DNA of 64,000 nucleotides. It comes from a virus. The stretch is from the IMG/VR virus record IMGVR_UViG_3300032288_004702, positions 64,001 to 128,000 of that record; one strand, written 5' to 3'. The first letter of the stretch is position 1. Every line of letters begins with the position of its first letter. The notes under the pieces were generated by a model that made no database searches, was not told the DNA's origin, and worked only from the letters and a program-made list of their open reading frames with translations. Position numbers and translations under genes: made by a program. Positions 27,681 through 63,694 of this stretch are shown here, piece after piece.

Positions 27681-27692
27681 GTAGATAAATTT

Positions 27693-27950
27693 ATGAGCGA
27701 AACAACATGGACATGGCTACTTTTCTTGATGGAAATAGTAGGCGTATACGGAAGCTATACCGTCGGGAACAAGCGGTGGCACGGGCACATGATTGTCGCG
27801 CTCCACTCATTCCCATGGGCTATCTACTCGATATTGTTTGACAAGCCAGGCTTTCTTGCTATGTGGCTTCTATGGCAGTGGGTCCACTGGAGAAACATGT
27901 ACAAGTGGCTCAAGGACGGAAAACAAGGCCCTGCCCCACACGGACATTAG
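27693..27950 (+). CDS. Small multi-TM membrane protein
   Basis: Trp-rich hydrophobic helices. Confidence 0.6.
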   Translation: MSETTWTWLLFLMEIVGVYGSYTVGNKRWHGHMIVALHSFPWAIYSILFDKPGFLAMWLLWQWVHWRNMYKWLKDGKQGPAPHGH

Positions 27951-28214
27951 ATAAATCTATCTGCGAAGTAGATTTACTTTTGCTATAAGGGCTACTAGCG
28001 ATATTGCTATTAGATGCATATGACCTCCGCATAGATAGTACTCAGGTCATTTAGCGCTAATCGCACCAAACATGTAGACATTCGGCACGACCCCTGGACC
28101 AAATAGGGGTAAGGCAGAGTAGATAAGTGTCAGTAGGGACAAGGCAGGGCATAAAACGCTGCCAAAAACATGCGCCGCATCATTCCTTCCACGTTTCTGA
28201 ATTCCGCGTAAGCC

Positions 28215-28301
28215 TCATATGCCAAATACACGGAGTAACAGAGAAGCTATAGGAACTACATAGAGGGAGATAAAGACAATCTCCTTTTTTGCTTTCTTCA
28301 C
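28215..28301 (-). CDS. 28-aa single-TM peptide
   Basis: AAAGGAGG RBS then GTG: MKKAKKEIVFISLYVVPIASLLLRVFGI. Confidence 0.45.
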   Translation of the reverse strand: MKKAKKEIVFISLYVVPIASLLLRVFGI

Positions 28302-28471
28302 CCAAGACCTCCTTTGTTGGCTGGTTGCCTCAGATAGTGCCGGGAATTTCCTCTAGCGCATACTCCACCTACCACAAAAGACACAAAAACTACTAGACAC
28401 GCACGACACCACACTTATGGTGTAGAAATATAAAAGGAGAGAAAAAAGGGGAGATTTCTCAGGAGACTCAC

Positions 28472-28822
28472 TTGTCAGACGCCGGCAAAAAGCCCACACA
28501 AAAATCACCCAATAAAAATGGGCAACCAGATACAGGACTAGATATACCTCGTAAGTCTTGGTTTGACCTTGCTAGTTGCAAAGGGAAAACCGAACTTATG
28601 TTTCCCAAACAACATAAGGACATTACATACATTGCGCAGGCGCGAGCCATCTGCAAATCATGCCCAGTGAAGAAGGAGTGTTTGGAGTACGCCCTAGAGT
28701 TCCCACCGGCAGATATGCATGGGGTATGGGCTGGTTTGACTAGTAGGCAGCTGGCGGCCGAACAGCGAAGACGCAAGATAAAGCCAACCCGACCAACCCT
28801 TGCACAGATGTGGGGGGACTAG
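28472..28822 (+). CDS. whiB: WhiB-family transcription factor
   Basis: C..(ASCKG)..CKSCPVKKECLEYAL..HGVWAGLT: four Cys plus a GVWxG turn. Confidence 0.92.
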   Translation: MSDAGKKPTQKSPNKNGQPDTGLDIPRKSWFDLASCKGKTELMFPKQHKDITYIAQARAICKSCPVKKECLEYALEFPPADMHGVWAGLTSRQLAAEQRRRKIKPTRPTLAQMWGD

Positions 28823-28905
28823 TGATTGGGACCCTGGTTACATTCGCAGTGGTAATCGCCGGCATTATCTATATGGAGAGAGGGCTCTTCAAAGATAAAG
28901 ACTAG

Positions 28906-28980
28906 TGGAGCCCTCGGTCAGGATTGAACTGACGACCTACCGCTTACAAGGCGGTTGCTCTACCACTGAGCTACAAGGGC
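28906..28980 (-). tRNA. tRNA-Thr (TGT)
   Basis: GCCCTTGTAGCTCAGTGGTAGAGCAACCGCCT-TGT-AAGCGGTAGGTCGTCAGTTCAATCCTGACCGAGGGCTCCA: cloverleaf with encoded CCA. Confidence 0.95.
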
Positions 28981-29165: not shown

Positions 29166-29510
29166 CTACTGAATTCTCAGATTGCAAGTCTCACAAAATT
29201 GCATGTCATTTAATTGGGTAATTTTTTTGTCGCACTCTTTTTTGCCGCACGGCTGCAGGATGTGCTCTCCCCGGATGTAGGCCAGCACGGTCTCTTCTAC
29301 TGTGGGGATAGAGAACTGTGCGGAGCCGGCGTTGGGTATCCCCTTGTCAGCCCGGATGAATTCCCAGACGGCGTACAAGATGACGTCATTTACTGCTAAA
29401 CCCTTTTTGCGGGCATAGTCGATTATCTCGTTTTTCTGTTTGCCCTTCATGCGGACATTCAAGACGACGTACTTATCTACAAAGCGCGTCTTTTCTGCGC
29501 GCCGGCCCAT
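29166..29510 (-). CDS. Ribbon-helix-helix-like protein with C-terminal Cys cluster
   Basis: VVLNVRMKGKQKNEIIDYARKKGLAVNDVI; C..C..CETC. Confidence 0.6.
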   Translation of the reverse strand: MGRRAEKTRFVDKYVVLNVRMKGKQKNEIIDYARKKGLAVNDVILYAVWEFIRADKGIPNAGSAQFSIPTVEETVLAYIRGEHILQPCGKKECDKKITQLNDMQFCETCNLRIQ

Positions 29511-31260: not shown

Positions 31261-31274
31261 CACCTTCGCTTTAT

Positions 31275-31691
31275 CTACTCTCCACCCCAGTAGTCTTTGT
31301 TCTTTTTCTTGCTGCTGTGCCGCGGGAGGAATTTTGATGATGCTGCTTCCTGCTGCAGCTGCGCCTGCCGCTGAGCTGCACGTGGGTCTGAGAGTTTGGC
31401 AAGAATTTCCTTGGTCTCGCCATCGAGGCCGCCACCGACAGTCTTCGAGTAATTCGACGGGTGCTCCATCCGGTTGCGTGCTTTTTCTTTTATTTCCTCT
31501 TCGAGAAGAAATTGCTGCAGCTCTAGCTCGAGCAGGGTTTGTGCGTTTTTTTCGATATTCCGCGGATTCGTCAGTGTCCGGTATTTAAATCTATCCAGGT
31601 ACCTGCCGGCGACGCCGGCCATGGCAGCAATAAAAACGATAATTGTTGCAACTGCTGCCGCGGTGAGAATCATTGAGATAAATGTGTTCAT
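31275..31691 (-). CDS. Membrane-anchored hypothetical protein
   Basis: N-terminal TM helix; RBS AAAGGA; stop lies inside GTAGATAA. Confidence 0.6.
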   Translation of the reverse strand: MNTFISMILTAAAVATIIVFIAAMAGVAGRYLDRFKYRTLTNPRNIEKNAQTLLELELQQFLLEEEIKEKARNRMEHPSNYSKTVGGGLDGETKEILAKLSDPRAAQRQAQLQQEAASSKFLPRHSSKKKNKDYWGGE

Positions 31692-31964
31692 GATTGTTTT
31701 TTCCTTTGTTCAAATTTATTGATTATTTCTTCCAGACGGCCGTCGTTTACTCGAGGGACCAGCCAGAAAAAGAACCAGAAGACCATGGCCATGTATGAGA
31801 AAAATGCAATTTTCATTCGCCGACCTCGTCGAGGTATGAGTCCCTAAGACCATCGCAATAATCCTGATATTGCGCTTTTATCTCGGCCTCACGTAGAAGA
31901 TGGTCATCCCGACGGCTTTCCTCAAAAGCCAGGAATTCTGCATTGATGTTTTCAGGGCCCATGG

Positions 31965-32237
31965 TTACCTGCCGGCGGCCAGAAGTTCTTCGTGTTTTTC
32001 CACAGTTTCTAGATACGTGTCGACTACACGTATGAAAGTCGCAGAGAAAACCATCCGTGTAGCCATCGACATATCGTCGATTTTTTCGAATATTCCCCCC
32101 ATGACAAGAAGCTTCTGTCTAACCGCATCCAGATTTTCTGCACGCTCTTCAGGAGCATAGGGATTACCAGTTATCTCGTCATAGAGAATTGCATCTTGCA
32201 ACTTTTCGGCGAGGAGCTCTGAGTTAAAGTTTTCCAT
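31965..32237 (-). CDS. Hypothetical protein
   Basis: 90 aa ORF. Confidence 0.55.
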   Translation of the reverse strand: MENFNSELLAEKLQDAILYDEITGNPYAPEERAENLDAVRQKLLVMGGIFEKIDDMSMATRMVFSATFIRVVDTYLETVEKHEELLAAGR

Positions 32238-32265
32238 TTATCTAGTACCTGTCTTTTGAAGTTAT

Positions 32266-32529
32266 CTACTGGCCGCGCCGGCCGCGAAAACTTTTCCTTT
32301 TTTTGATTTTGTAGCCGGCGAGCTCGAGCTCTTCGATTACATGTGCTGGGATTCCCGCCCAAACGACGACACCTTTATGTACCAGTGCACGTGCGATTGC
32401 TGCCTGCTTTCCTGGGAGTTCATCAATTCGTTGATGGAGCGCTGCCGGCGTGACGGGGTGTCTTGGAATCGGAGAGCTATTAAAAACTTCCCAGGGGTCA
32501 ATGTCTTCGCGGTCTTCCACCACCGTCAA
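32266..32529 (-). CDS. Hypothetical protein
   Basis: 87 aa; stop lies inside GTAGATAA; start uncertain. Confidence 0.5.
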   Translation of the reverse strand: MTVVEDREDIDPWEVFNSSPIPRHPVTPAALHQRIDELPGKQAAIARALVHKGVVVWAGIPAHVIEELELAGYKIKKRKSFRGRRGQ

Positions 32530-32538
32530 TCCCTTTCC

Positions 32539-33228
32539 TTAGATGTCTTTGGTTAAATCTAACAGAAACCAGCCACGTTCCCACATCATGCCGATAGCCG
32601 AGTATCCGATGATGTCGGTGTATGTATCTGTTAGAGATTCATTGGCCGCCTTGCCGCTGCGCGCCAGATGCAGATTCTTCAATCTTGCGATTTTGTCATG
32701 TGTCCGGACAACCAGGCCTCGACGTCCAAAACGTGCAATATTGTGATGTCCGTAATCTGACTGCTTTCGAATCAGGGTTTCTGTGATGTCTTCCCGAATC
32801 ATCCAACTATCGAAGACGCCGGCTGCGGATGCTGAATTATTTGAAATTTCTGGATGGCCGCCAGGGCCGCGGGACGGAAATAAATTCCCGTTTTTCATCC
32901 CAACAGCTGCAGCTATAGAACCGAGAATTCTCCATTCTTCAACCCAGTACATCTCGTCCGCCTGAAACCAGTCCATGGTCTGGACCATTCCCTCAAAATG
33001 GTTATCTACCATCGAGAGTCCCTCGAGTACAGAATTTAAAAAATCGTCGATTTCTGCCGCCGGGCCGCTCGAGCTGATAATTCTCTTTTTTCCGTTTTCT
33101 TCAAAGTTCCGGAGGTGCACCAGGGGTGCATCCGCTCTATTGAAAATCTCAGAAACGCAGATTGCTGCAGCTTCTTGCCAGCTCCTTGGGTGCTCTGGTT
33201 CGAGCTCTTCCACCACCGTCAACATCAT
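32539..33228 (-). CDS. DUF1599/Nmad1-like nucleotide-modification-associated domain protein
   Basis: RKQSDYG..NI...GLVVRTHDKIARLKNL...ESLTDTYTDIIGYS. Confidence 0.7.
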   Translation of the reverse strand: MMLTVVEELEPEHPRSWQEAAAICVSEIFNRADAPLVHLRNFEENGKKRIISSSGPAAEIDDFLNSVLEGLSMVDNHFEGMVQTMDWFQADEMYWVEEWRILGSIAAAVGMKNGNLFPSRGPGGHPEISNNSASAAGVFDSWMIREDITETLIRKQSDYGHHNIARFGRRGLVVRTHDKIARLKNLHLARSGKAANESLTDTYTDIIGYSAIGMMWERGWFLLDLTKDI

Positions 33229-33251
33229 TTATCTACCTTCGGACTTATCTA

Positions 33252-33713
33252 CTACTCCCCCGCCAGCAGGTCATCCCAGCTAGCAGGAGGGTTCGCCTTC
33301 ATTTCCACTCTAACCATTTCGGCCAGCTCTTCCAACTGCCCAACCCAGAAAGCGTCGGAAACTCCAGGGAGCCCCGTCTTTTTTTCCATTGAATCGACGC
33401 TGTCGAGGCGCTCTGCAATGAAATCACGGGAAAAGGCAGCGATGATTGATTTGTCCCCAGCTCCACGCATGAGTACTGGACCGCTTTGTCCATCCAAGGC
33501 CTCGGACGGAACATGTATCCCCGTCACAACATATTTGTTGTCATCTGTGAAAATGAAAATAATGTTGTTGTTCTCTTCGTCAACCAGGGAAAGCTGGCTA
33601 GCCACTTCGGCCGCCACGTCTTTCGAAATATCTGATTTTTCAAGCATCGCAATGAGCTCTTCTTTGTTGAATTTCTCTGAATTCCCCACTGGGTCCCAGT
33701 AGCTGTCTCTCAT
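33252..33713 (-). CDS. Hypothetical protein
   Basis: RBS AAAGGA before MRDSYW; stop lies inside GTAGATAA. Confidence 0.6.
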   Translation of the reverse strand: MRDSYWDPVGNSEKFNKEELIAMLEKSDISKDVAAEVASQLSLVDEENNNIIFIFTDDNKYVVTGIHVPSEALDGQSGPVLMRGAGDKSIIAAFSRDFIAERLDSVDSMEKKTGLPGVSDAFWVGQLEELAEMVRVEMKANPPASWDDLLAGE

Positions 33714-33879
33714 ATTTTTTCCTTTTTTATTTCGTCGATGGCCGACGTCGTTTCGACGAAGCCAGGGATATGTGCTGGTAAACCACATAAATCGCAAATT
33801 GCGTTTGTCGAGCTCTGGGTTGAGTTTTTGATTTTCTCAAAAAGAACAGAGCCGCACTCGAGGCATTCGTGTGCTGGCA

Positions 33880-34113
33880 TCAGGCTGGAGTCGCCGATGT
33901 CTCGAAAACCATGTAACCCTCAATGGCTGTGTGTCCCCAGTCGAGTGGGTCGCACTGAACAATGCCAGTAACCCACGCTCTTTTAGGCATGGGCGCTAGT
34001 GGGTCTTCGCCGATTTCTTTTCGGACTTTTTCTATTGCGTCACCAAGTGCACGCTGCGGTGATTCTGACTCAACATCAACACCGACCATTACCTGAACTC
34101 TGTAAGTAGGCAT
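33880..34113 (-). CDS. Hypothetical protein
   Basis: RBS GAGGAGGGG before MPTYRV. Confidence 0.55.
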   Translation of the reverse strand: MPTYRVQVMVGVDVESESPQRALGDAIEKVRKEIGEDPLAPMPKRAWVTGIVQCDPLDWGHTAIEGYMVFETSATPA

Positions 34114-34291
34114 TACCCCTCCTCGTATTCGCATTTTTGACCATCGCAGCTGCCGTACTGTCTGCAAAAAACTGAATAATTCAGGCAGTTCGGGTCACGT
34201 GAATCTTCCGCCTCAGGCTGGCTGCGCTCAGCTTTACGGCGTCCACGGGATTTACCTAGTTTGTAGACGACTAGGTGACTGACAAGTCCCA

Positions 34292-34516
34292 TTACTTATC
34301 TACTGCCTCTTCACTGACAGCCAGCGAGATGCTTTCCCACAGGTCGTTTTCGGGGTGTTCGTCAAACGCTTGACAAATCTTCTCCCATGCTTCTTGGGTC
34401 AGTTCCACTTCGTCATCCGCTGAGTAGTCAAAGTCGCTCTTCGTGTAGACGACTGCGCAGATTTCCTCTGCGGGATTCAGTTTCTGTAAAGCTTTGATGA
34501 GTGTTTGGACTTGCAT
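34292..34516 (-). CDS. Hypothetical protein (likely leaderless)
   Basis: TTGACA-17-TAGAGT lies 6 nt before the ATG. Confidence 0.6.
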   Translation of the reverse strand: MQVQTLIKALQKLNPAEEICAVVYTKSDFDYSADDEVELTQEAWEKICQAFDEHPENDLWESISLAVSEEAVDK

Positions 34517-34631
34517 GACGACACTCTATCCACCACCGTCGGTTTTGTCAACCTCTTTTTAAATCTGTCCAGTAAATAAAAAATGAGATTCTGCAAGCGG
34601 GCGAACATGTGTTCGTACTAATGTCTCATTC

Positions 34632-35006
34632 ATGGACAACAGCACAAAATTCAATATGTATGTGGAAGCCCTCGAGCTGTACATTTCAAAAAATGGAAAT
34701 TCTAAAATTCCAGCATCACATGTTGAAATCGTAAATGAAAAAACAATTTCTCTTGGCGCATGGGCCGGATACATCCGTCAGAGATTTCGCAAAAATCAAC
34801 TTCCCGCAGCACGTGTAGCCAGACTTGAACAAATCAACGGCTGGCAGTGGGGGCCATTTCAGCCAGGGCCGGCGACGGATTCTGCAAGAAATGAATCAAT
34901 TCGCGAGCTTCGCATTCAGGGCAAGTCTCTTCGGGAAATCGCAGATGAGTTTGATTTGTCGCGGCAGCGCGTACATCAAATCATCAAAAAGATGAAAATT
35001 TCGTAG
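34632..35006 (+). CDS. Helicase-associated (HA) domain fused to a sigma-region-4-like HTH
   Basis: LELYISKNG...LGAW...RQR...RVARLEQINGWQW, then GKSLREIADEFDLSRQRVHQI. Confidence 0.75.
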   Translation: MDNSTKFNMYVEALELYISKNGNSKIPASHVEIVNEKTISLGAWAGYIRQRFRKNQLPAARVARLEQINGWQWGPFQPGPATDSARNESIRELRIQGKSLREIADEFDLSRQRVHQIIKKMKIS

Positions 35007-35056
35007 GGCCGTCCGGTCTTCCACCACCGTCATTAAGTTTCCGCGAGGGGGAAAAC

Positions 35057-35368
35057 ATGGTTTCTCAAAATTGGAAAAATACGAACAAAACTTCTGGGTC
35101 GTTTCCTCGGGCTTTCCGAGATTCGCCGATTTCGGGCGGGGCTCCCACCCCAAAGAAGGGTGGTCGTGACAGCCGGCGAGAGGGGAACGCATTTCTTGGA
35201 TTTCTGTTGCTCGTCGGGATACACACCGTTCTGCTGTGGCTTGCCGTGCGTGTCGCAGAATCGGCAGGAATCGTGACATGGAATGTCGGCTGGTGGGATT
35301 CACTGAAACTCGCCACGCTGTATGTCGTGTGGAAGGCTGTCGCTCTCATGGCTTGGAATCGCCACTGA
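35057..35368 (+). CDS. Membrane protein
   Basis: Two C-terminal hydrophobic helices. Confidence 0.45.
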   Translation: MVSQNWKNTNKTSGSFPRAFRDSPISGGAPTPKKGGRDSRREGNAFLGFLLLVGIHTVLLWLAVRVAESAGIVTWNVGWWDSLKLATLYVVWKAVALMAWNRH

Positions 35369-35632
35369 CGCACCGAGAGAGACTTATCTACTCCTAGTAC
35401 CACTGGCGATACATGCATGCATGACGCATGCACCGAGCATGCCGTGAGCATGCCTGCCAGCACGAACAGGAGCAGAGTAGATAAGTGGGTCACGAGCGGT
35501 ACTCTGCCCACGGGTCACGCCCTGCGCTCAACTCTGCCTGCTCCCATTCCAGCAACGCATACGCCCATGAATCGCACTGTGCGCATGGACACTTGCTCTC
35601 ATGTCCTTCGGGCTGTTCGGGTCGTGGTGTCC

Positions 35633-35872
35633 TCACGATTCGCTCACTTTCTGAAACATGTCTGCGAGAATCGGCAGAACGCTCATTCCTTCGTTGTATG
35701 TGAGGGCAGTCCAGTCACGCTCTGCTTGCTCTCTGCTGTATTCGCCTTTCGCCAACTCTCGCTTCATGCCTTCGTAGTAGTGGCAGAGATTCGTGAGAGC
35801 GTCGTACAACTCGTCCAGCAGTTCCTCTTCGTCCATTGTGTCGTCCCCATGCGTGTCTAGTAGTGATTCCAA
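35633..35872 (-). CDS. Hypothetical acidic protein
   Basis: RBS GAAAGGGGGG upstream. Confidence 0.5.
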   Translation of the reverse strand: MESLLDTHGDDTMDEEELLDELYDALTNLCHYYEGMKRELAKGEYSREQAERDWTALTYNEGMSVLPILADMFQKVSES

Positions 35873-36036
35873 GTTATCTACTTCCCCCCTTTCCCACTAC
35901 CCCTTGCGGAGAATCAAAGGAGCGTGACTCTCACGCTCGGGGCAGTGGTGGTACACAGAGTAGATAAGTCTCTGTGACCATTCCCCTCGGGCGGTGGTGG
36001 GTGTCCAAGCCCACCACCACCCTCTCGGGAAGTTAT

Positions 36037-37605: not shown

Positions 37606-37607
37606 GA

Positions 37608-50337: not shown

Positions 50338-50354
50338 GACTTATCTACTCCCTT

Positions 50355-51528: not shown

Positions 51529-51591
51529 CGCCGAGACTTATCTACCCCCAATGGAACGCACCCAAAGAGAGTAGATAAGTCTGCGAGAGCG

Positions 51592-53904: not shown

Positions 53905-54127
53905 TCCGAAGGCCCACCTACTCAGAGTAGATAACTCTCGGTGGGTGGGCCGAAGGGCAGAGAAAGCCCCGCTACGCTCCCCCGAAGCTGCCGGGGCTCC
54001 TGCCCGAAAGTCGGGGGCGACATCCAGCGCACGGGGGAGTGGTAGATAAGTTCGGGATTTGGGAAGGCTGTCCGTGCTGTGGTACATTCGTGTCGCCAGC
54101 AACCACCAACCGAAAGGCAGGCACACA

Positions 54128-54556: not shown

Positions 54557-54662
54557 CCGTAGGGGAGTAGATAAGTCCCCTATCGGAGTAGATAAGTTTC
54601 GGAAGTCTGTCCTACCCGTGGTACATTATGGGTAGCCACCAACCAACCGAAAGGAACGGCAC

Positions 54663-54926
54663 ATGAAACAGCGCAAAGTGTTCACACACGAGGAAGTCAT
54701 CGCACTTCTCTGCTCGCCTAGCCCGAAGGCAGAGGCAGTCCTGCTCTATCTGACGACAGTCAAGCAGGCAACGACAGGCGAGATAGCGAAGGCTCTCTGC
54801 TGGGACAAGAGCAACACGGGTCGCAGGCTGGAAGCACTTGCCGAGGACGGATTCGTAGAGTGCGTAGACGACAGCCACCACGAGGGCAACAGGGGTCGCC
54901 CTGCCCGACTGTGGAGAGTCCTCTAA
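54663..54926 (+). CDS. Winged-helix (TrmB/ArsR-like) protein
   Basis: ATTGEIAKALCWDKSNTGRRLEALAEDGFV...GRPARLW. Confidence 0.75.
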   Translation: MKQRKVFTHEEVIALLCSPSPKAEAVLLYLTTVKQATTGEIAKALCWDKSNTGRRLEALAEDGFVECVDDSHHEGNRGRPARLWRVL

Positions 54927-55145
54927 CGAGACCCCCGACTTATCTACTCCCCATGCGCCGACCGTGGTGGAGTAGATAAGTCACCCACGGGGCGAGTTCG
55001 GGGCGGGAGCCCCGGCTGGACAGCCGAGCGCAGCGGGGCTTCTTCCCGGAACTCGGCCAGAGCACACGGGGGGGTCGTAGATAAGTTGGGAAGTCTGTCC
55101 CGACCGTGGTACACTTCATGCAAGCCAACTGAAAGGGGCAACGAC

Positions 55146-55487
55146 ATGAGCAAGACGCTCGCCGATTACTGGGACGATGTGGAGGACGCGGTGCAGGACG
55201 CACACCTCATCGCGTGGGACACCTGCCACAAGATTTACCTCGCGATGGACGAGGCCGAGGCCAACTGGTTCCGCGAGAACTACGCGCCCGATGTGGTGAC
55301 GGGAACGCCCGAGGAACTGCTCGCCACTCTCCGCGAGTGGTACGAGAACTCCTGTGGTCTCCGCTTCATTCAGGCCGTGACGCGTGACGAGGAAGACCCG
55401 AACAGGGGATTCACCAACCTGATTCCCCAGGGAGCCGACTGGGAGGACGAGGAAGACGAAGACGACTACGAGGACGAGGAGGAGTAG
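55146..55487 (+). CDS. Acidic hypothetical protein
   Basis: WDTCHKIY..SCGLRFI; acidic tail; stop lies inside GTAGATAA. Confidence 0.7.
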   Translation: MSKTLADYWDDVEDAVQDAHLIAWDTCHKIYLAMDEAEANWFRENYAPDVVTGTPEELLATLREWYENSCGLRFIQAVTRDEEDPNRGFTNLIPQGADWEDEEDEDDYEDEEE

Positions 55488-55494
55488 ATAACTC

Positions 55495-55833
55495 ATGGCG
55501 ACCGAAACAACACCCGATGAGTTCGCCCTCATGGACTCACGCAACGCGTTCGCGTGGAACCTGCTAACCGAACTGCGCGAGCGTTCCACGAAGCCCGAGG
55601 TCGTAGAGGCCTCTGAGATTCTGCTCGCGAACATCGCCGACCCGACCGATTACGCGGTCATCGTGTGGCCGAACGAGGACGACCTCCGTTCGTTTGACGA
55701 GACCGAATGGGGGACGGACGAGAACGGTTATTGGAGCGACTGCTACGAGACCCCTCTCGTGTGGTGCGACCGACAGGACGAGCACTCGCTCATCGTCTGG
55801 TACTCAGCGAAGTACGGCCAGACAGGGGAGTAG
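55495..55833 (+). CDS. Acidic hypothetical protein
   Basis: 112 aa; stop lies inside GTAGATAA. Confidence 0.6.
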   Translation: MATETTPDEFALMDSRNAFAWNLLTELRERSTKPEVVEASEILLANIADPTDYAVIVWPNEDDLRSFDETEWGTDENGYWSDCYETPLVWCDRQDEHSLIVWYSAKYGQTGE

Positions 55834-56035
55834 ATAAGCACCCCCCGCTTATCTACTCCCCTTTGGTATACCCCGAACCAGAGTAGATAAGTGGCAAGAA
55901 GCCCCGCCTCTTTACGGGCAATGGAGCGAAGCGGGGCTTACCCCCGTGTAGGTCATTGCACGACGGGGGAGTAGTAGATAAGATTTCGCAATCGGCACAA
56001 GCCGAGCTGCCACACAGACTCAAGGAGAGAAGAAC

Positions 56036-56398
56036 ATGGCAACACAAAAGAAGAAGCCCGCGACCAAGAAGGTCGTAGCAAAGAAGAAGCCAGCAGCCAA
56101 GAAGCCGGCGAAGAAAGCACCGGCAAAGAAGGCCGCCGCCAAGAAGGCCGCCGCCAAGAAGGCTGTCACGAAGAAGGCTCCCGCCAAGAAGACGCCGGCC
56201 AAGAAGGCTGTCGCGAAGAAAGCCACCGCCAAGAAGGCGGCTATCCCCAGCAGAAAGGCAAAGACCATCTCAAGCTCTGCCACCGCAACTTCCACGTCAT
56301 CCAGCGCTACACGTGTGAAGATTTCCCCAATCACGAAGACCAGCACCACGTCGTCCGTCCCTGGCGCGAAGGTCACTTACAAAGTCATCAAAAAGTGA
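56036..56398 (+). CDS. Histone H1-like Lys/Ala-rich DNA-binding protein
   Basis: PAKKA/AAKK repeats; RBS AAGGAG. Confidence 0.8.
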   Translation: MATQKKKPATKKVVAKKKPAAKKPAKKAPAKKAAAKKAAAKKAVTKKAPAKKTPAKKAVAKKATAKKAAIPSRKAKTISSSATATSTSSSATRVKISPITKTSTTSSVPGAKVTYKVIKK

Positions 56399-56649
56399 GC
56401 GAGCCCGAGACTGTCAAGGGTCCTTCATTCGAGGAATGGATGGCCTACGGAATCGGACAAGGGTGGTGCGGACCTCCCGTGTGCTACGTGCACGACGGGT
56501 TACCGACCGCCCCCGAAGAGGACGATGAATTTGATGAGGGCGGAGACCCGTGTATTCATGTCATTCGCATGTATGAAAGCGATGAGCAGAAGAAGTCAAT
56601 CGAGGATGCCCACTCGCCATCACAGTGGCGAAATCATTACACCAAGTAG
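56395..56649 (+). CDS. Conserved phage hypothetical protein
   Basis: GWCGPPVCYVHDGLP...GDPCIHVIR. Confidence 0.65.
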   Translation: MSEPETVKGPSFEEWMAYGIGQGWCGPPVCYVHDGLPTAPEEDDEFDEGGDPCIHVIRMYESDEQKKSIEDAHSPSQWRNHYTK

Positions 56650-56658
56650 ATAACTAGG

Positions 56659-56780
56659 GGCAGCAAGACCGTCGTGGACCGCGGCGGAGTCTTCGCGAAC
56701 TAGGAGCTTCGGAAACAGGGATGGCCCGGGTTTTAGGTTGCCCGGGTTGTCTCTGTTCATCCGGCTGCTTTTTCTTTCTT
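56659..56780 (+). ncRNA. Structured RNA or terminator candidate
   Basis: GCAGC...GCTGC closes two G-U-rich hairpins, followed by a T-rich tract. Confidence 0.4.
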
Positions 56781-56844
56781 CCCATATCGCTATTTTCTCA
56801 TATTTCCGAGAGCGCTATGGGTACGTAGTAGATAAGTCGAGTCG

Positions 56845-57045
56845 CTAAAAAAGTGGGATATCCGTGCTGACCGGCTTGTCGTTACAGAACTCGTGCTTGT
56901 ATTCGTGGAGTTCCTCGACGATGCGGTTGACGGTTTTCCCGTTCGCTTTCAGCCAAACGACCGTCTTTCGCTCGACGGTATTGTCTCCGGGGCGGAGCGA
57001 CAGCCCACACACGGTACACGTGAAGAGTGGCGGCAGGGAGCTCAT
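56845..57045 (-). CDS. Small Zn-finger-like protein
   Basis: CTVC...HEFC. Confidence 0.5.
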   Translation of the reverse strand: MSSLPPLFTCTVCGLSLRPGDNTVERKTVVWLKANGKTVNRIVEELHEYKHEFCNDKPVSTDIPLF

Positions 57046-57122
57046 TTAATCCTCAAATCTCTTTGACTGCTTGATGAGTAGATAAAACAACGATAGGGCC
57101 ACAACGCCAAGTACGGTGCCGC

Positions 57123-57299
57123 TCATTTGCGCCAGTCCGTTACGAACCCGTCCATGTAGTCCTCCATCGCTTCGTCGGTTCCACAAGAGGAGCAGATTTC
57201 TGTCTTGTTATCCAGCCGCGACAGGGCCCCAATGTAGGCCCCAGGGGTGTCGTTATTGGGAATAAATCCCCCACATCGGGGGCATACCGGCTTGCTCAT
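57123..57299 (-). CDS. Small Cys-rich phage protein
   Basis: CPRC..GALSRLDNKTEICSSCGTDEA; RBS GGAGAG. Confidence 0.6.
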   Translation of the reverse strand: MSKPVCPRCGGFIPNNDTPGAYIGALSRLDNKTEICSSCGTDEAMEDYMDGFVTDWRK

Positions 57300-57410
57300 T
57301 TTCTCTCCAAAATGTCTAGTAGTTGGTACTCCCGACACGATAGCCCATGACGGGGAAATTTGCAACAGTTTGTTTTGCCGGCCCTATGTGTGGTTAGTAT
57401 GTGCCTAGGA

Positions 57411-57469
57411 CCGGTGGGGCTCGCGCAACCTCTCTCCTTTCGGTACATCCCCAGTGCGAGCCTCGCCGG
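57411..57469 (+). ncRNA. Hairpin with an anti-Shine-Dalgarno-like loop
   Basis: 16-bp stem with three G-U pairs on the + strand; loop AACCTCTCTCCTTTCGGTACATCCCCA. Confidence 0.45.
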
Positions 57470-57489
57470 TTTCTACTATTCTGTAGACG

Positions 57490-59406
57490 ATGAGGTTGTA
57501 CCTAGACAAGAACGAGATAGTGCTGGACTTCCCGTATGACCAGCAACAAGTTGCCGAACTCAAACAAATAAGGGGCGCACGATGGGACAAGAGCTCAAAG
57601 CTATGGCGTGTACCAGTAACGTCCCTCGCCGAGGCGCGAGAGTTCGCCATCAAGCATGACTTCGACGTGACAATAGACGTGCTGACGTTCAGTGCGCCTC
57701 GCCCTCGAACCGGAACAGCAAGCGTATCCCTAGACGATGGGATGATTGCCATCCGTGTCCCGTACGAAAGAGTAATCGTCAAAGCGGTGAAGCAGATACC
57801 GGCCGTATCGTGGAACGCGAAGAAGCACTACTGGCAAGCGCCAACATCTTCCGTACTAAATGCAATCGAGTGGGCAGAGAAGTTCGACGTCCCCGTGGAG
57901 CCCGATGTGGCGGCTTTATCCGACGAAGTGACCACGCGAATGAACGAGTTCATCGAGGCGTCTCGCTCGGTAGACGCAGAAGTAGACATCCCTACATTGC
58001 AGGGAGAGTTGCTTCCATACCAGCGCGCAGGGGTTATCTACGCATCAAACGCTCGCAGGACATTCATCGCGGATGACATGGGTCTAGGAAAGACGCTCCA
58101 ATCTATCGCAACGCTCGAGTACGTTATGGATTCGTATCCGGCGGTAGTTGTATGTCCGCCAAGCCTTGTTCTCAACTGGGTGTCTGAATGGAACCGGTGG
58201 CTACCGAACCGACGCGTCGTCCCCGTTACGAATAGAAAAGACTTTCCGGAGCGCGGTTCTTACGATGTTGTCGTCGTTGGATACAGCAACATTTCGCATT
58301 GGGAAAAGCGCCTCGCCGGCCATCGCGCATACGTGTTCGACGAGAGCCACTACGCAAAGACTCCAACGGCGCAGCGCACAAAGGCGGCTGTGAAGATGGC
58401 AAAGTCGGCGCACAAAGACGGACTAGTACTGTGTCTCACTGGGACACCAGTTACAAACCGCCCGAACGAGTACGCGTCTCAATTGGAGATTCTCGGTCGC
58501 CTGAAAGACTTTGGCGGGCTGTGGGGTTTCTACCGGCGCTACTGTGCTGCCTATCAAGACAACTTCGGGCAGTGGAACATCAGCGGCCACTCGCACCTAG
58601 ACGAACTCAATGAGCGTTTACGTGGAACGTGCTACATCAGACGCACCAAAGACCAAGTTCTCTCTGAACTGCCACCAGTGATTCACAGCAAGCTTCTTGT
58701 CGAGGGTGCATCGTCAGTGATGAAAGAATACGCAAAGGCGGAAAAGGACATCTTGTTGTACATTGCCGAGCGTGCGCGGCAGTTGGCGCTCGAGCAGGGT
58801 AAGCCATCGTATGGTGCAGCCATCGCCGCGATGATTAGGGCAGAGGCTAACGAACACCTTGTTCGCTTGTCCGTACTCAGGAAGATTGCCGCCAAAGCAA
58901 AGATGGACGTAGCAGAGGAGTGGATAAATGCTCGAATCGAGAACGGCAAGAAAGTTGTTGTCGCTGCTCACCATCGTGACATCGTTGATGAACTCGCTCG
59001 CAAATACGGCAATCTTCGCATTCAGGGTGGGATGGCGGTCGAGGAAGTGGAGGAGAACAAGCGCCTCTTCCAAACTAAGAGCGTTGAGGATGCGCCTGTT
59101 ATGGTGCTCTCAATACAGGCGGCGAAGACGGGACACACTCTGACTGCATCAGAGGAATGTCTTTTCCTAGAACTCCCGTGGACACCCGCCGACGTAGACC
59201 AAACATACAGTCGGCTTCATAGGCTTGGACAAAAGGGAAGCGTGACGGCGACATACATGCTTACATCGGGGACGATAGACGAAGAAATCTATGACATCAT
59301 CGAGAAGAAGCGTTCGGTTGTCGGTGCGGCAGTCGATGGAGGGGAAGTAGATAACTCCGACCTATCTACGCAGATGATTCTGAGCCTGCTCGACAAACTC
59401 AGTTAG
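57490..59406 (+). CDS. SNF2-family helicase with two HARP-like N-terminal domains
   Basis: DDMGLGKT, DESH, LTGTP, QTYSRLHRLGQ; repeated 'KQI.GA.W....K.W..P' modules. Confidence 0.9.
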   Translation: MRLYLDKNEIVLDFPYDQQQVAELKQIRGARWDKSSKLWRVPVTSLAEAREFAIKHDFDVTIDVLTFSAPRPRTGTASVSLDDGMIAIRVPYERVIVKAVKQIPAVSWNAKKHYWQAPTSSVLNAIEWAEKFDVPVEPDVAALSDEVTTRMNEFIEASRSVDAEVDIPTLQGELLPYQRAGVIYASNARRTFIADDMGLGKTLQSIATLEYVMDSYPAVVVCPPSLVLNWVSEWNRWLPNRRVVPVTNRKDFPERGSYDVVVVGYSNISHWEKRLAGHRAYVFDESHYAKTPTAQRTKAAVKMAKSAHKDGLVLCLTGTPVTNRPNEYASQLEILGRLKDFGGLWGFYRRYCAAYQDNFGQWNISGHSHLDELNERLRGTCYIRRTKDQVLSELPPVIHSKLLVEGASSVMKEYAKAEKDILLYIAERARQLALEQGKPSYGAAIAAMIRAEANEHLVRLSVLRKIAAKAKMDVAEEWINARIENGKKVVVAAHHRDIVDELARKYGNLRIQGGMAVEEVEENKRLFQTKSVEDAPVMVLSIQAAKTGHTLTASEECLFLELPWTPADVDQTYSRLHRLGQKGSVTATYMLTSGTIDEEIYDIIEKKRSVVGAAVDGGEVDNSDLSTQMILSLLDKLS

Positions 59407-59855
59407 TCGCTCTTTGCTTCTTCGCCTTCGGTGTCGATGCCGGAAATAATTTCCTGAGCAATCAACTTTGCATACTTGCGACGAAGTCTCCAAATCTTTC
59501 GATTCATCTCTACAAGCTCTTTGCTCATTCGCGCTTTGATAATCGCGTCGTCATCGAACACGCCATGAATGTTAAACAATGCGTCGTGTAGTTCAGTGTC
59601 CTCTATGAGAATGTCAGAAATCCAGCCAGCACGGTTGTCGATGGCCATCATCAACTCGCACATTCCCTCCACACCGAATTCGTCATAGAGACGGTTTACA
59701 ACAATGGTGCAAAAGTGTGACCGGTACAAGCGCTTAGCCTTCTGTGATTGCGACATGAACTCAGAGAGCCACACCGCGAGTTCGCCACTAGAAAAGTCAC
59801 TAACATCATCTGAGGCGGAGTCAATAAAGTCGTCATCATCGCCGTCTTCTCTCAT
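59403..59855 (-). CDS. Hypothetical protein
   Basis: 150 aa with RBS GGGAGG. Confidence 0.6.
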   Translation of the reverse strand: MREDGDDDDFIDSASDDVSDFSSGELAVWLSEFMSQSQKAKRLYRSHFCTIVVNRLYDEFGVEGMCELMMAIDNRAGWISDILIEDTELHDALFNIHGVFDDDAIIKARMSKELVEMNRKIWRLRRKYAKLIAQEIISGIDTEGEEAKSD

Positions 59856-59905
59856 GACGCCTCCCCGTAACTAGAACTGTACACAAATGATAACAGCGTC
59901 AATCG

Positions 59906-60931
59906 TTACACCGCTGACAAGAGATAATCCTGGGCTTTCATTTTCGCCCGAGTCACCCATGAGTTTGCACTCATTGACGCCAGTGCTCGCTCTGTCTGCG
60001 TTGCATCACGATAATGGTCGAGGTATTCACCCACAGCGTTTACGAGTGACCAAGCGTTGTAGCCATAGTTCTTTGCGTTGTTGTCATTTACGTAAATCGC
60101 ACGAACTAAGCCCATGACATCATCTCGGTTTTTTTTCTGTCTCTCCGTTGCATCTTTCGATGTTGGGAACACAGCGTCAAGTGTCTTGTCGAGAATCTGC
60201 GATGATGCTGGAACGTTTATTGACAGCAATCGCTCTGCCGTTGCTGAGAACTCTCTCGCCCACTCTGTCGAGATGTTGAGTACTTGATTCGCTTGCTCGA
60301 TTGCTCTGTCGGCATTTCGGGTGTGTCGTGCAGTGAATACTCGCTTCGCTGATGAAACGCCAGCAATCACTGTGTTTTTGCACACCGCACGAATGCTGGT
60401 ATTCGCAAATGTAATCGCCGTCTTCCCGTCATGTCCGTTATGCACGAGTAGATAACGCTCGATGGAGTCATTCACTCCGTTCGGGTCGATGATGAGTGCG
60501 CCCATGTCAATAGACGCAAAGAACTCACGCCCACCGTGCAGAACTCCACAAGTATCCACGACTGCGTCTCCGCCGGAAGCTCCAACAATGTCGAGTGCGT
60601 AGTCAAGACATTCACGATTTTGTTGCACCACGTAGCGCGTGCCGACAGTGGCGAGACCATCGAATGAACCATCTGCGTTCACCCGTACTGTCGCCCGTGA
60701 GTCGGGGACAAGAATCGGAGTTCCATCAGGCTGTCGTATCGGCTCGCCGTTATCGTCACATACCGCAACACGCGTTGTCACCACGTCGAAATCAGCCTGC
60801 GCCGCTTGGAGCATTGCCTCCGCCGTTTGTAGCCCTTTCATTGGTTTTCCGAGTCTGTGCCACGGAATCTCTCGGTCTGCGTACGCCATGCGCACTGTGC
60901 CGTCGTCGTTGATTTCTAGTTGATGAGCCAT
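59906..60931 (-). CDS. DUF932-family protein
   Basis: PWHRLG, RYVVQQN, NGHDG, IRAVCKNT, RHT, NAVGEYLDH. Confidence 0.85.
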   Translation of the reverse strand: MAHQLEINDDGTVRMAYADREIPWHRLGKPMKGLQTAEAMLQAAQADFDVVTTRVAVCDDNGEPIRQPDGTPILVPDSRATVRVNADGSFDGLATVGTRYVVQQNRECLDYALDIVGASGGDAVVDTCGVLHGGREFFASIDMGALIIDPNGVNDSIERYLLVHNGHDGKTAITFANTSIRAVCKNTVIAGVSSAKRVFTARHTRNADRAIEQANQVLNISTEWAREFSATAERLLSINVPASSQILDKTLDAVFPTSKDATERQKKNRDDVMGLVRAIYVNDNNAKNYGYNAWSLVNAVGEYLDHYRDATQTERALASMSANSWVTRAKMKAQDYLLSAV

Positions 60932-61143
60932 GATGTCTCCGTCTCTCTATCGTGTAGATAAATCTATCTGAAAGGTGCGCCTCGTAGGGGAAGGGAAATA
61001 ATGCGGGGCTCCCGCAGGGAGGGGACACCCCCACCCCACGCAACGGGGATGTAGTAGATAAGTCTCATCTTTCGGAAGCCTGACCCACCCGTGGTACGCT
61101 GGCGGTGTCGGGGGGGACGGTCTCCCCCGACGAAAGGGGAGCC

Positions 61144-61701
61144 ATGCTCAGGATTGAGACGGAGTGCGAGTTGAGGGACGGGCGCGTCCTGTACGAGGGC
61201 GAGGTCGTCCTCACGGTGGACAGCGTGGACGGCGACTCCGTCACGGGCTGGTTCCGCCCCGACTGGTGGGACCGCAACACCGCCCGTGCGCTGGTGCTGG
61301 ACACCCCGTGCAAGTACGAGGGCAAGCCCGTGCCGTGCGACGAGAACGGCGAGTGGACGAACACGCTCGCCTGCGAGTGCGCCACCTGCCTCGTGGACGA
61401 GTTCCCGTACGACGACTGGGGCTGGCACGGTGCTGGCGCAGAGGTCACCCTGACCCTCCCCAAGACGGAGGCGAAGAAGGGCGACCGCATCGTCGTCGGA
61501 GTCCTGCTCACCCGAGAGAGGCTCACGGGTGGGTACGACCGCCACGGCATCACCAGCGGACTCTCGTCCACGACCTACTGCGGAAGCGTCTCGTGGGACG
61601 AGTGGCAGGCGTTGGAGGCGTGCGAGACGACCCGAGGCTGGCTGGCGTACGACGCACAGATTCGGGAGGACGAGAACCCGACCGAACACAGGGACTGGTG
61701 A
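61144..61701 (+). CDS. Hypothetical protein
   Basis: Follows the conserved promoter and CGAAAGGGG. Confidence 0.65.
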   Translation: MLRIETECELRDGRVLYEGEVVLTVDSVDGDSVTGWFRPDWWDRNTARALVLDTPCKYEGKPVPCDENGEWTNTLACECATCLVDEFPYDDWGWHGAGAEVTLTLPKTEAKKGDRIVVGVLLTRERLTGGYDRHGITSGLSSTTYCGSVSWDEWQALEACETTRGWLAYDAQIREDENPTEHRDW

Positions 61702-61989
61702 CGGGGAGAGTAGATAACCCCGAACGGAGGGACCGCACACCCACCCCACAGGCGCACACCCACACCCACGCCACACGCCCGAACACCCACGGCAACCCAC
61801 GCCACACAGGCAGAGGGCAAACCGTGCGAAGCACGGTGCGCCAGCCCAACGAGCGAAGCGAGGCGGGAGAAAGCGAGGAAACGAGCGGGGCTCCACCGGA
61901 GCAAGGGCGCACTGGCGCATGGCACACGGGGTGGTAGTAGATAAGTCGGCAGGTTGGGAAGGCTGTCCCCACGGTGGTACAGTTCAGGC

Positions 61990-63195
61990 ATGAACGAAAT
62001 CTCGTCCGCCTCACTTGCCTTTGACCTCCACACACAGTTGGTGGAGTACCGCGCCAGTCACCCGACGGCCGACCGACTCCTACACCACGGCTACTACCGC
62101 GCCTTTGTCGGCGGAGAAACCACCGACACCGTGTCACGCGCAACGCTGGAAGTGGCGATGAAGGAAAGCCACACTTACCACGAGGTCGCGCGAACGCTTG
62201 ACGACGCGATTCTCACCCGTGCTGACACCGTGTTCCTCACCGACGACCTGCGCGAGTTGGTCAAGACGGCAGAGGCCACAATGCCCGACGAGGTTCTGTT
62301 TGACACGGACATTTACACCCCGTGCGGATTCATCGTGATGGAAACGCCACTGCGATACGATGTTCTGTCGCGCACGAAGGCAAGCGAGTTTGAGAGCCTG
62401 CTCGCTCTCGTTCACAAGCACGGCGGAACCGTGACAGGGACGCGCACACATGAAACGCCCGACCAGTTCGGTGATTACATCGGCGCGGAACACTGGGAGG
62501 TTCGCGCGTTCGCTTGGGCTGATGTAGATAAGGTCAAGCCCGAAGCACTGGCCGACATTGAGAAGCGATTCGGCACGAAGTCTCCCGAGTACGCGTTCGC
62601 ACGGAGCGTGATGCTCGCCCCCAACGGGGACAAGGGACTGTATGTCCGCGTGTTCGGCTCCATGACGGCCACAAGTGTGGACGGAGTGACCATTGAGGTT
62701 CCTGCCATCTCGCGCGAGTTGCGACTGATGGACATCTACGCATTCTTCTACGGGGAGGACGGACTGCGCGAGGAGACGGCACTGTACGAGCCGACAGGAC
62801 GCGTGACGGACGAGATGCTCAAAGCGTCGTGGGAACGCTCACGCTCCATTCGTCGTTTCCTCGTCGCTCTGTTCCGCTTGATGGAGGAGTATGTGGAAGT
62901 AGATAAGTCTCCTCTCCATCGCGCACACGGCCGTCGTGCCTCCCGTGTTGGTCGCGGTGGCGACTTGCGGAATGTCACGATTCTCTCACTGCGTCGCGCG
63001 CTTGGCGATGACGAAGATGGAGGCGGTGTCGGCCACAAGGTCACGCTCGCCCATCTCGTCCGTGGCCACTGGCGCAACCAGTGGTATCCATCGCAAAGGC
63101 AACACCGCGCGAAGTGGATACGCGCACACCGTCGCGGTGGGAACGCTGGCGATGTGGTGACCGCCCGTCCGCGAATCATCAAGGTAGACCGATAG
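61990..63195 (+). CDS. Hypothetical protein with a C-terminal VRGHWR motif (leaderless)
   Basis: HLVRGHWRNQWYPS...WIRAHRRG; ATG lies 6 nt after the -10 box. Confidence 0.7.
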   Translation: MNEISSASLAFDLHTQLVEYRASHPTADRLLHHGYYRAFVGGETTDTVSRATLEVAMKESHTYHEVARTLDDAILTRADTVFLTDDLRELVKTAEATMPDEVLFDTDIYTPCGFIVMETPLRYDVLSRTKASEFESLLALVHKHGGTVTGTRTHETPDQFGDYIGAEHWEVRAFAWADVDKVKPEALADIEKRFGTKSPEYAFARSVMLAPNGDKGLYVRVFGSMTATSVDGVTIEVPAISRELRLMDIYAFFYGEDGLREETALYEPTGRVTDEMLKASWERSRSIRRFLVALFRLMEEYVEVDKSPLHRAHGRRASRVGRGGDLRNVTILSLRRALGDDEDGGGVGHKVTLAHLVRGHWRNQWYPSQRQHRAKWIRAHRRGGNAGDVVTARPRIIKVDR

Positions 63196-63263
63196 AGCAC
63201 GCGACACCTTATCTACTCTCACCCGTGGCCAGTGAGTGAGAGTAGATAAGTGTCAGAGCGTCG

Positions 63264-63455
63264 CTAGGCGCGCTTGGCGACGATGGAGTATTCCACCGTG
63301 TCCTCTCCGATGTTCGGAGCAGGGAAGTAGAGCGCGAGGCCGAGGTACTTCTCTGCGTCGCGCTTGGTAGCGAACACCTCGTTGAGAACGGTTCGGCTGA
63401 TACGGCCGTCCGTGAGACGCGCGGTGCGCTTGATGATGAATGTTTGTGATGCCAC
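63264..63455 (-). CDS. Small hypothetical protein
   Basis: GTG follows CGAAAGGGG and the conserved promoter. Confidence 0.55.
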   Translation of the reverse strand: MASQTFIIKRTARLTDGRISRTVLNEVFATKRDAEKYLGLALYFPAPNIGEDTVEYSIVAKRA

Positions 63456-63694
63456 TGTGAACCCCTTTCGTTCGGCAACACCAAGACAGTACCACACATC
63501 GGACAGACTTCCCAAAGTGGTGGTGCGCTCCGGTGGGAGCCCCGCCCCTGACGCCCTCACTTCGTTCGGTTGTCCTCGCGCTGAACGAGGAGAGTCGCGC
63601 GCAACAGTGAGAGTAGATAACGGCAGAGACACCGTGCCGACACTTATCTACTCTCATAGACGGTGCCGACACGGTGCGTGCGCCGTGTACCGAA

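Follow-up and report, generated by a model that had tools for sequence, protein, structure and literature searches.

The question raised by the DNA described here is why a phage should carry more than one hundred copies of a single eight-letter word in one part of its genome. The window, by which we mean the whole analysed stretch of 64,000 nucleotides, comprises bases 64001-128000 of the IMG/VR record IMGVR_UViG_3300032288_004702, a phage genome of 156,276 bp with a terminal overlap of 123 bp (referred to as G0). The word, GTAGATAA, had been noticed in a first-pass annotation, which placed more than 100 copies in the right-hand part of the window, none in the left 27 kb and the highest density at 38-56 kb, and which proposed binding sites for a protein coating this domain (as a segregation, translocation or injection signal, for protection or for silencing). 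Our evidence is comparative throughout; relatives are referred to as G1, G3, G4 and G6. It identifies an exact, lineage-specific recognition signal, which possibly provides docking sites for a factor that controls transcription of the domain. The gene calls are our own codon-model calls and largely agree with those attached to identical ENA contigs. Positions are those of the window unless assigned to the genome.

The exact count agrees with all three observations. GTAGATAA occurs 111 times in the window (39 copies on the plus and 72 on the minus strand) between 27681 and 63651, compared to 0.97 +/- 0.98 expected copies and a maximum of 4 in 100 dinucleotide shuffles. No copy is present in positions 1-27680, and the highest density, 13-19 copies per 4 kb, is reached between 36 and 56 kb. 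Nor is the word similarly frequent in the rest of the genome, since 117 of its 119 copies fall within genome 91.7-131.3 kb (window 27.7-67.3 kb). The array thus extends about 3.3 kb beyond the window end, with a mean density of roughly one copy per 350 bp. The two copies outside this domain lie near the portal and terminase genes and correspond to the chance level (two per 115 kb); the one that was checked, at the start of the portal gene, is still GTAGATAA at the matching position of G1. The domain is also distinct in its composition, having a G+C content of 0.53-0.60 compared to 0.43-0.51 elsewhere in the genome, and comprises about 80 mostly small genes of unknown function.

The word is all-or-none. 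Its 117 exact copies in the domain are accompanied by only 20 copies of the 24 one-mismatch words taken together, which with 92 copies outside the domain occur at the background rate, and a 12-mer search allowing up to two mismatches added nothing, so that no surrounding set of weaker, degenerate sites was found. In its full extent the site covers about 13 nt and is asymmetric rather than palindromic, (G)GA-GTAGATAA-GT(C), with A at position -1 in 91 and T at position +9 in 95 of the 111 copies. A literature search for the word itself retrieved primers only.

About 5-7 copies are coincidental and do not belong to the true array. Those at 27681, 29473, 57078 and 60954 are not regarded as array members because they remain GTAGATAA in G1, the array of which uses another word, and the copy at 38020 represents a conserved DEVDK peptide in an AAA_5 ATPase. 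As the leftmost copies are coincidental, the true array begins at about 31.3-32.3 kb and not at 27.7 kb (Table 1).

The strongest evidence for a function of the word is provided by the relatives. Based on 17 loci around the SNF2 gene and 80 loci around the gene of p162, a family-wide protein of the domain, it is a habit of this phage family to maintain a private word per lineage in the equivalent domain. G6 carries 70 copies of GAGTAGATAACT and G1 carries 80 copies of GGTGTAGGTAAGT, which was also found in G4; the words of other lineages are AATAGATAAGT, CTAATAGATAACT, ACTAGATAAGT and AAGGATAATG, and another clade lacks any such word. The abundant word of clade G3 was considered as a counterpart of GTAGATAA and rejected, as it is the promoter box of that clade. 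The word types among the relatives are GTAGATAA, GTAGGTAA, ATAGATAA and CTAGATAA, and orthologous sites switch between them together. G0 and G1 are syntenic and share about 75% nucleotide identity. Among the 68 alignable G0 copies, 39 are GTAGGTAA in G1, about 10 of the promoter class (see below) are GCAGGTAA and 4 are still GTAGATAA. Accordingly, AGTAGATAA is found 96 times and TGTAGGTAA not once in G0, while TGTAGGTAA is found 77 times in G1, where the mixed forms AGTAGGTAA and TGTAGATAA occur zero times and twice, respectively. The sites are therefore conserved in position while the word co-varies with the lineage, and since the corresponding places in close relatives have a variant differing in two letters, the word is a real recognition signal.

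Copies within genes follow the same switch. From G0 to the lineages using the other word, EVDNS becomes SVGNS in the SNF2 helicase, GVDKS becomes GVGKS in a 522-aa protein adjoining the AAA_5 ATPase and GVDKV becomes GVGKV in the product of gene 47686. The C-terminus of p230, a further protein encoded in the domain, reads KGE-stop in GTAGATAA phages and KGV-stop in GTAGGTAA phages. No such change is seen in any lineage for FVDKY of an Arc-like protein or DEVDK of the AAA_5 ATPase. Array copies within genes thus switch at an amino-acid cost, unlike VDK copies that are constrained by the protein. Judging from these substitutions, selection acts on the nucleotide word itself, which co-evolves with something lineage-specific.

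With respect to the genes, 82 of the domain copies fall between genes and 17 extend, in sense orientation, over a stop codon; of the others, 15 lie within genes in sense and 3 within genes in antisense orientation. As the domain is 75% coding and 70% of the copies fall into the non-coding 25%, intergenic copies are enriched about 3-fold. The sense copies within genes always use the sole open frame (Val-Asp-Lys/Asn), and their excess over antisense copies exists although the antisense direction offers three open frames and the sense direction one. For 96 copies the local direction of transcription is unambiguous, and 77 of these are co-oriented with the gene. The 19 opposed copies include 12 partners in inverted pairs and 3 that lie over an uncalled open reading frame (ORF) on the plus strand. 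Even plus-strand genes nested in the minus arm (49584-49784 and 51292-51528) bear plus copies, and the orientation of the array flips from minus to plus near 53.1 kb and again at 63.6 kb. This orientation by gene argues against a signal for translocation, injection or segregation, which should follow the DNA ends or an origin. Eight copies, placed between the ribosome-binding site and the start codon, precede the latter by 0-3 nt, and copies are also found in 3' untranslated stretches. The flank GGAG of the copy at 39870..39877 can itself serve as a ribosome-binding site.

The domain contains 23 near-identical promoters, about 20 of which have a copy directly ahead of the -35 box. They are located at 38389-63515 and on to 65656 and consist of the box TTGGGAAGYCTGTCC, a spacer of 6-7 nt, the extended -10 element TGGTAC (at a fixed distance of 21 nt) and a leader with CCACCAACC and GAAAGGGG ahead of the start codon. 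In 22 of them a copy is present no more than 140 nt upstream. The distance from copy to box is 1-3 nt in 11 promoters, which places the copy at about -39 to -46, and 8-10 nt in 6 others, and these promoter-class copies carry the longer left flank ACACGGGGGNGTN. At the typical site listed in Table 1 the box is followed by six nucleotides and TGGTAC, with the gene starting at 46222. The promoter core is identical in G0, G1 and G6 despite the switch of the word. The p162 promoter is the only one in which the word follows the -10 element, at 39163-39170 within the 5' leader. At 9 promoters a regular-expression search detected a GC-rich terminator-like hairpin, AGCCCCG...CGGGGCT (more were seen by eye), and the copy is always located downstream of it. 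At these promoters the copy thus need not be transcribed, as the hairpin lies upstream of it. It had already been pointed out that copies outnumber promoters; with about 110 copies and 23 promoters a role as one operator per promoter is indeed insufficient.

Read along the direction of transcription, a typical spacer consists of the stop codon, one to three copies (often as an inverted pair), the GC hairpin, a promoter-class copy, the promoter, the leader and the start codon. There are 18 inverted pairs with arms of 12-15 bp and 4 sense/antisense/sense triplets. In the inverted pair 55830/55849 a non-consensus base is kept paired on both arms.

Table 1. Positions of the motif domain, representative copies of the word and two proteins of the domain (window coordinates; a dot marks features without a single strand)
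Feature	Position	Strand	Remarks
Motif-saturated domain	31271..64000, on to ~67342 (genome 131.3 kb)	.	about 105 copies in 31271..64000
Coincidental copy	29473..29480	-	encodes FVDKY in Arc-like repressor; unchanged in all relatives
In-gene copy, 522-aa protein adjoining AAA_5 ATPase	36833..36840	-	VDK in G0 and G6; VGK in G1 and G4
Five co-oriented copies	38436..38657	-	from the stop of gene 38654-39142 to the AAA_5 ATPase promoter; GC-rich hairpin between
p162, family-wide winged-helix protein	38654..39142	-	generic winged helix only by fold
Junction-class copy	39870..39877	-	TAG is the p230 stop; next ATG 3 nt on
p230, acidic (isoelectric point 4.6), family-less	39874..40566	-	among 80 related loci, only in phages with an xTAGATAA-type array
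Inverted pair	44735..44773	.	hairpin with 13-bp arms, GGAGTAGATAAGT ... ACTTATCTACTCC; one of 18
Typical promoter-class site	46270..46306	-	GTAGATAA at 46299-46306, 2 nt upstream of the box TTGGGAAGTCTGTCC
Divergent promoter pair, array switch from - to +	53079..53250	.	promoter-class copies at 53093 (-) and 53213 (+)
In-gene copy, SNF2 helicase	59347..59354	+	Val-Asp-Asn; GTAGGTAA in G1 and G4, giving Val-Gly-Asn

Two further observations concern the promoters and spacers. The GC-rich inverted repeat AGCCCCG-N16-24-CGGGGCT, which may represent a terminator or a dimer-binding site, occurs between genes throughout the family, with about 27 half-sites (for example at 38560-38610, 41870-41910, 44600-44640 and 54000-54035). 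Furthermore, the 15-nt promoter box is far longer than a -35 hexamer and is conserved in G1 and G6; in clade G3 it is replaced by TAGGAAACTCCAGCC-N6-GGTATAG, present in 33-45 copies. This points to a promoter-recognition factor encoded by the phage itself.

G0 is an uncultured phage of freshwater actinobacteria and a member of an abundant family. It encodes a WhiB protein, its matches in bacterial assemblies are restricted to two short contigs of metagenome-assembled genomes, one of them labelled Actinomycetota, and it was recovered at 99.2-100% identity in many (>40) metagenome assemblies. The phage collection holds no near-identical record, and apparent strain variants in ENA contigs turned out to be scaffold gaps. 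G0 looks lytic and reliant on the host polymerase, as no tyrosine or serine recombinase (integrase, resolvase), no sigma region 2 and no single-subunit RNA polymerase were found in its genome. The Phage_integrase profile PF00589 had zero matches across the complete genome while matching 14 of 14 control genomes, and no prophage copies were detected in 185,579 genomes. In the motif domain alone, represented by positions 31000-64000, most 4-bp palindromes are avoided: for 12 of the 16 words the observed/expected ratio is 0.06-0.58 (TATA 0.06, ACGT 0.23, ATAT 0.31, AGCT 0.36, TTAA 0.37, TCGA 0.39), compared to about 0.8-1.2 elsewhere. GATC is absent from the entire 156-kb genome. This avoidance and the host-type promoters together point to an early block that faces host restriction, and a phage would have to turn such a block off at a later stage.

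Taking these findings together, we favour the interpretation that the array provides docking sites for a lineage-specific factor controlling transcription of the domain, resembling most closely the operator/stoperator arrays of cluster A mycobacteriophages, and consider its chance of being correct to fall just short of even. It is preferred because the asymmetric site, the placement at promoters and gene junctions, the co-orientation with transcription and the lineage-cognate variants are the published signature of the cluster A arrays. The factor, presumably a protein specific to the phage lineage, would read the site of about 13 bp on DNA and not on RNA, and its target would be one 40-kb block of early-type genes transcribed by the host RNA polymerase. 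Copies beside the -35 box would act as operators, while co-oriented copies at junctions, in 3' stretches and within genes would form orientation-dependent blocks to the elongating polymerase or to read-through. The whole array would enable the phage to switch the domain off, probably by repression, or to insulate its many small transcription units. With regard to the first-pass proposal, the invariant, confined and positionally conserved recognition site stands, and silencing or transcription control fits best among the roles listed there; the coating of the domain by a protein is a proposal only.

Several observations weigh against this interpretation. The number of copies is about 4-fold that of known arrays, and the confinement to one domain is unlike cluster A. 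There is no obvious lysogeny to be maintained in a phage for which neither an integrase or resolvase nor prophage copies were found. Many copies closely precede a terminator-like hairpin, so that a roadblock there would seem superfluous, and the inverted pairs and sense-antisense-sense triplets are foreign to stoperators and suit an RNA structure equally well. An L5-type immunity repressor was not matched by PHROGs or Pfam among about 48 proteins of the domain, the rest of the genome not having been scanned with a gp71 profile, and a reader of the MrpR type, which has a recombinase fold, was not found in the complete genome by means of PF00589. Finally, none of the DNA-binding candidates in the domain, which are the XRE and HA helix-turn-helix (HTH) proteins, two ribbon-helix-helix (RHH) proteins, WhiB and the winged HTH protein p162, has a substitution that tracks the switch of the word.

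The search for the reader was based on PHROGs and Pfam scans of the same 48 or so proteins, which in addition to an XRE HTH, an HA/sigma-r4-like HTH, two RHH proteins and WhiB revealed a ParA-like ATPase, a replication-initiator-like protein and a helicase-loader-like protein. The binders named in the first-pass annotation (34632, 40687, 38654, 54663) proved poor candidates. The recognition helices of the XRE (40687) and HA-HTH (34632) proteins are identical in G0 and G1 despite the different words, the winged HTH protein 54663 lacks an orthologue in the relatives, and the helix of p162 (38654), GFSY[QP]TTLK, hardly varies among 80 loci that comprise many word types. The two RHH proteins and WhiB were dismissed for the lack of word-type-specific substitutions. 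A scan for type-segregating substitutions (G0 = G6, differing from G1 = G4) was led by the 522-aa protein adjoining the AAA_5 ATPase and did not indicate any recognised DNA-binding protein. Searches of the PDB with p162 or p230 profiles retrieved no gp71-type repressor.

The distribution of p230 follows the array. The protein is present in 33 of 33 evaluable loci of the xTAGATAA type, in 0 of 41 loci without an abundant word and in 0 of 4 loci with unrelated words, although this distribution corresponds to a single split of the p162 tree. No match to p230 was obtained in Pfam, PHROGs or the PDB sequences, and a protein atlas search was empty. A fold match to pilins in the PDB was rejected, as the best Z score of 7.7 lies within the noise. 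Its predicted fold (pLDDT, the predicted local distance difference test, 88) resembles only uncharacterised phage proteins, including one of the cluster O phage Catdawg (E 1.4e-5, template-modelling score TM about 0.5). p230 is therefore considered as a reader only in the sense of a lead. Apart from these proteins, the domain encodes at 56036-56398 (+) a 120-aa protein with an isoelectric point of 11.7 and AKK/PAKK repeats like those of histone H1 or the mycobacterial HupB tail, which is a candidate DNA-coating protein.

The main and serious rival, although rather unlikely in our estimation, is a signal acting at the RNA level. The word would then be read on the transcript, or on the non-template strand within the transcription bubble, by a phage RNA-binding protein or endoribonuclease that processes, stabilises or shuts off early mRNAs, similar to RegB and RegA of T4, and the inverted pairs would sequester or expose it. 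The strict sense orientation, the sense copies within genes and the eight copies directly ahead of start codons, as sites for a translation block or mRNA cutting, are consistent with this explanation. The 18 inverted pairs and 4 triplets could form alternative hairpins, for which the retained pairing in 55830/55849 also speaks, and it would agree with the finding that no DNA-binding protein tracks the switch. However, the most strictly placed copies lie between the terminator-like hairpin and the -35 box and hence outside the promoter's transcript. Moreover, single copies are not displayed in local stem-loops, the pairing of their flanks being equal to that of shuffled controls in G0, G1 and G6, no stand-alone antisense copy could be found that is usable as a trans-acting RNA gene, and Rfam has no match at the word.

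A broader possibility, which likewise seems improbable on present evidence, is that the array serves a lytic phage as a punctuation code for the entire domain, with a novel type of factor as its reader, either a reader of RNA or the non-template strand or a complex containing p230. Such a code would govern the first-entering early block that is free of restriction sites, and the two-letter switches without intermediates at about 80-100 sites would reflect a fast turnover of specificity or an active, templated rewriting.

Recombination at mosaic boundaries is quite unlikely. According to this explanation the word or its cassette is a crossover point for the exchange of small genes between co-infecting relatives, comparable to the promoter early stem-loops (PeSLs) of T4-like phages, and phages with differing words would not swap cassettes. 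Of the 30 ends of G0-G1 homology blocks, 12 are no more than 30 nt away from a copy, compared to 5.1 expected (P = 0.004, in a comparison made without a gene-end control), and 8 are within 9 nt. The domain is also a mosaic of ORFan cassettes that each have a hairpin and a promoter. PeSLs and the repeats of cluster O phages likewise mark indels (PMC2839356, PMC4122927, PMC4351075). Yet the copies are situated at gene boundaries, where breakpoints fall anyway, 13 bp are short for homologous exchange, and a site-specific recombinase was not found in G0. The orientation, the invariance of the 8-mer, the copies within genes and the fixed spacing to the -35 box would be left unexplained.

It is highly unlikely that the word constitutes a second promoter class, that is, a minimal element comparable to TATAAATA, the late promoter of T4, which the host polymerase would read together with a phage factor. 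Such a role would suit an invariant, AT-rich 8-mer that is oriented with the genes and often located upstream of starts, with the promoter-class copies forming tandem promoters. The -10 consensus of actinobacteria is TANNNT, however, which the word does not fit, and no gene for a sigma region 2 protein or a single-subunit polymerase was found. In addition, the copies (110) outnumber the genes (about 80), many of these copies immediately precede a terminator-like hairpin or occupy the 3' end of a gene, and 12 antisense partners are only 19-36 nt away from sense copies.

The explanation to which we give least credence is a polar DNA-handling signal, whether centromere-like, translocase-guiding, protective like Chi or related to injection, and perhaps tied to the ParA-like ATPase or to a first entry of the domain: an exact 8-mer with strand polarity does resemble Chi, KOPS (FtsK-orienting polar sequences) and SRS (SpoIIIE recognition sequences), the array reverses its orientation at 53.1 kb, where the ParA-like gene lies, and the domain alone avoids 4-bp palindromes as does the first-entering DNA of some phages, but the orientation flips with single nested genes and again at 63.6 kb, and the sites are placed by promoters and codons instead of evenly. 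The comparison with Chi, KOPS and SRS failed in that orientation is set by single genes and not by the direction of replication or the DNA ends, and that with parS/ParB failed because the site is not palindromic and the ParA-like gene lacks a neighbouring ParB gene. The small ParA-like ATPase (53302-53904, +) is encoded at the very point of transcriptional divergence; its identity to the counterparts in same-word and different-word relatives alike does not exceed 46-48%, neighbouring genes reaching 75-90%. The sole ParB_N protein of the genome (genome 39965-40843, outside the window) belongs to the packaging module, where its gene follows those of the portal and large terminase. It lies close upstream of a PAPS-reductase-family gene, and the two, which together span genome 39965-42189, may form a DNA-modification pair.

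Other repeated words were also observed. (A/T)TGACGGTGGTGGAAGA is present seven times in the window, always on the minus strand (31044, 32515, 33208, 35019, 41770, 43452, 47130), and is the commonest word in many relatives without a GTAGATAA-type array. Each copy begins at a start codon and encodes MTVVEE; two represent mini-ORFs of 9-10 codons just upstream of promoters, one of which has the TAA of a GTAGATAA copy as its stop. Outside the domain, and nowhere else, CAACTGGAGCAA and CAACTGGCGCAA are repeated about 25 times; they may be coding repeats or a late-gene signal. A single tRNA-Thr gene (TGT) is located just left of the motif domain at 28906-28980 (-).

If our preferred interpretation of docking sites for transcription control holds, an array logic known from other phages would recur, with the copy number raised about fourfold, in an abundant, seemingly lytic family of freshwater actinophages and in a compositionally distinct early-gene domain. 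Even amino acids are given up in order to keep the word. The sister genomes represent a natural experiment: dozens of orthologous sites differ between them by a clean switch of two bases, at -1 and +5, so that the co-evolution of about 100 sites with their reader can be tested directly, and the cognate and non-cognate 14-mers (GGAGTAGATAAGTC and GGTGTAGGTAAGTC) provide a simple assay for fishing out the reader. Should the latter act on RNA or have a new fold, a new mode of phage gene control would be at hand. To our knowledge, tests of operator arrays that are dispersed and oriented are confined to temperate mycobacteriophages and SPbeta.

Among the known systems, the operator/stoperator arrays of cluster A phages (L5 with its repressor gp71, Bxb1, TipsytheTRex) share with G0 an asymmetric site of about 13 bp at promoters, in short intergenic spaces and overlapping starts and stops, as well as the common orientation with transcription, the lineage-cognate variants and the near-identity of sites within a genome (PMC9283540, PMC6550527). 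L5 has "more than twenty" 13-mer sites per genome (PMC9283540), which are spread over both arms in cluster A, whereas G0 has about 110 in 40 kb of one domain, with inverted pairs and copies within genes being common. A gp71-type repressor (among about 48 domain proteins), an integrase and a parABS cassette were not found in G0, the host of which belongs to the freshwater Actinomycetota and the genome of which measures 156 kb.

A looser likeness exists to SPBRE, a dispersed 15-bp element in many promoter regions of SPbeta that is read by the master repressor MrpR (YopR) (PMC10516654), as both are dispersed and private to the phage, and the word of G0 would likewise have one reader. MrpR has a tyrosine-recombinase fold, while G0 has no protein of the Phage_integrase family. 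SPBRE is furthermore found in promoter regions, about 10 of them with binding peaks, and SPbeta is temperate (PMC10516654).

The 17-bp repeats of the cluster O phages Corndog and Catdawg, of which more than 30 invariant copies exist in a non-temperate actinophage, are of unknown function (PMC4351075). Similar to the word in G0, they are denser in the non-structural arm, are located within genes to one third and in some cases flank indels (PMC4351075). Their repeat is dyad-symmetric and follows no orientation rule, in contrast to the asymmetric, oriented and three times more numerous site of G0.

In T4-like phages, PeSLs are cassettes of a hairpin and an early promoter that flank small variable genes in a plastic region (PMC2839356, PMC4122927), with homology breakpoints at the repeats. 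This cassette architecture recurs in G0, where breakpoints may likewise fall at the repeats. The 8-mer is, however, an extra element beyond the hairpin and the promoter: it is also found by itself, within genes and over stop codons, and it differs between lineages that have the promoter core in common.

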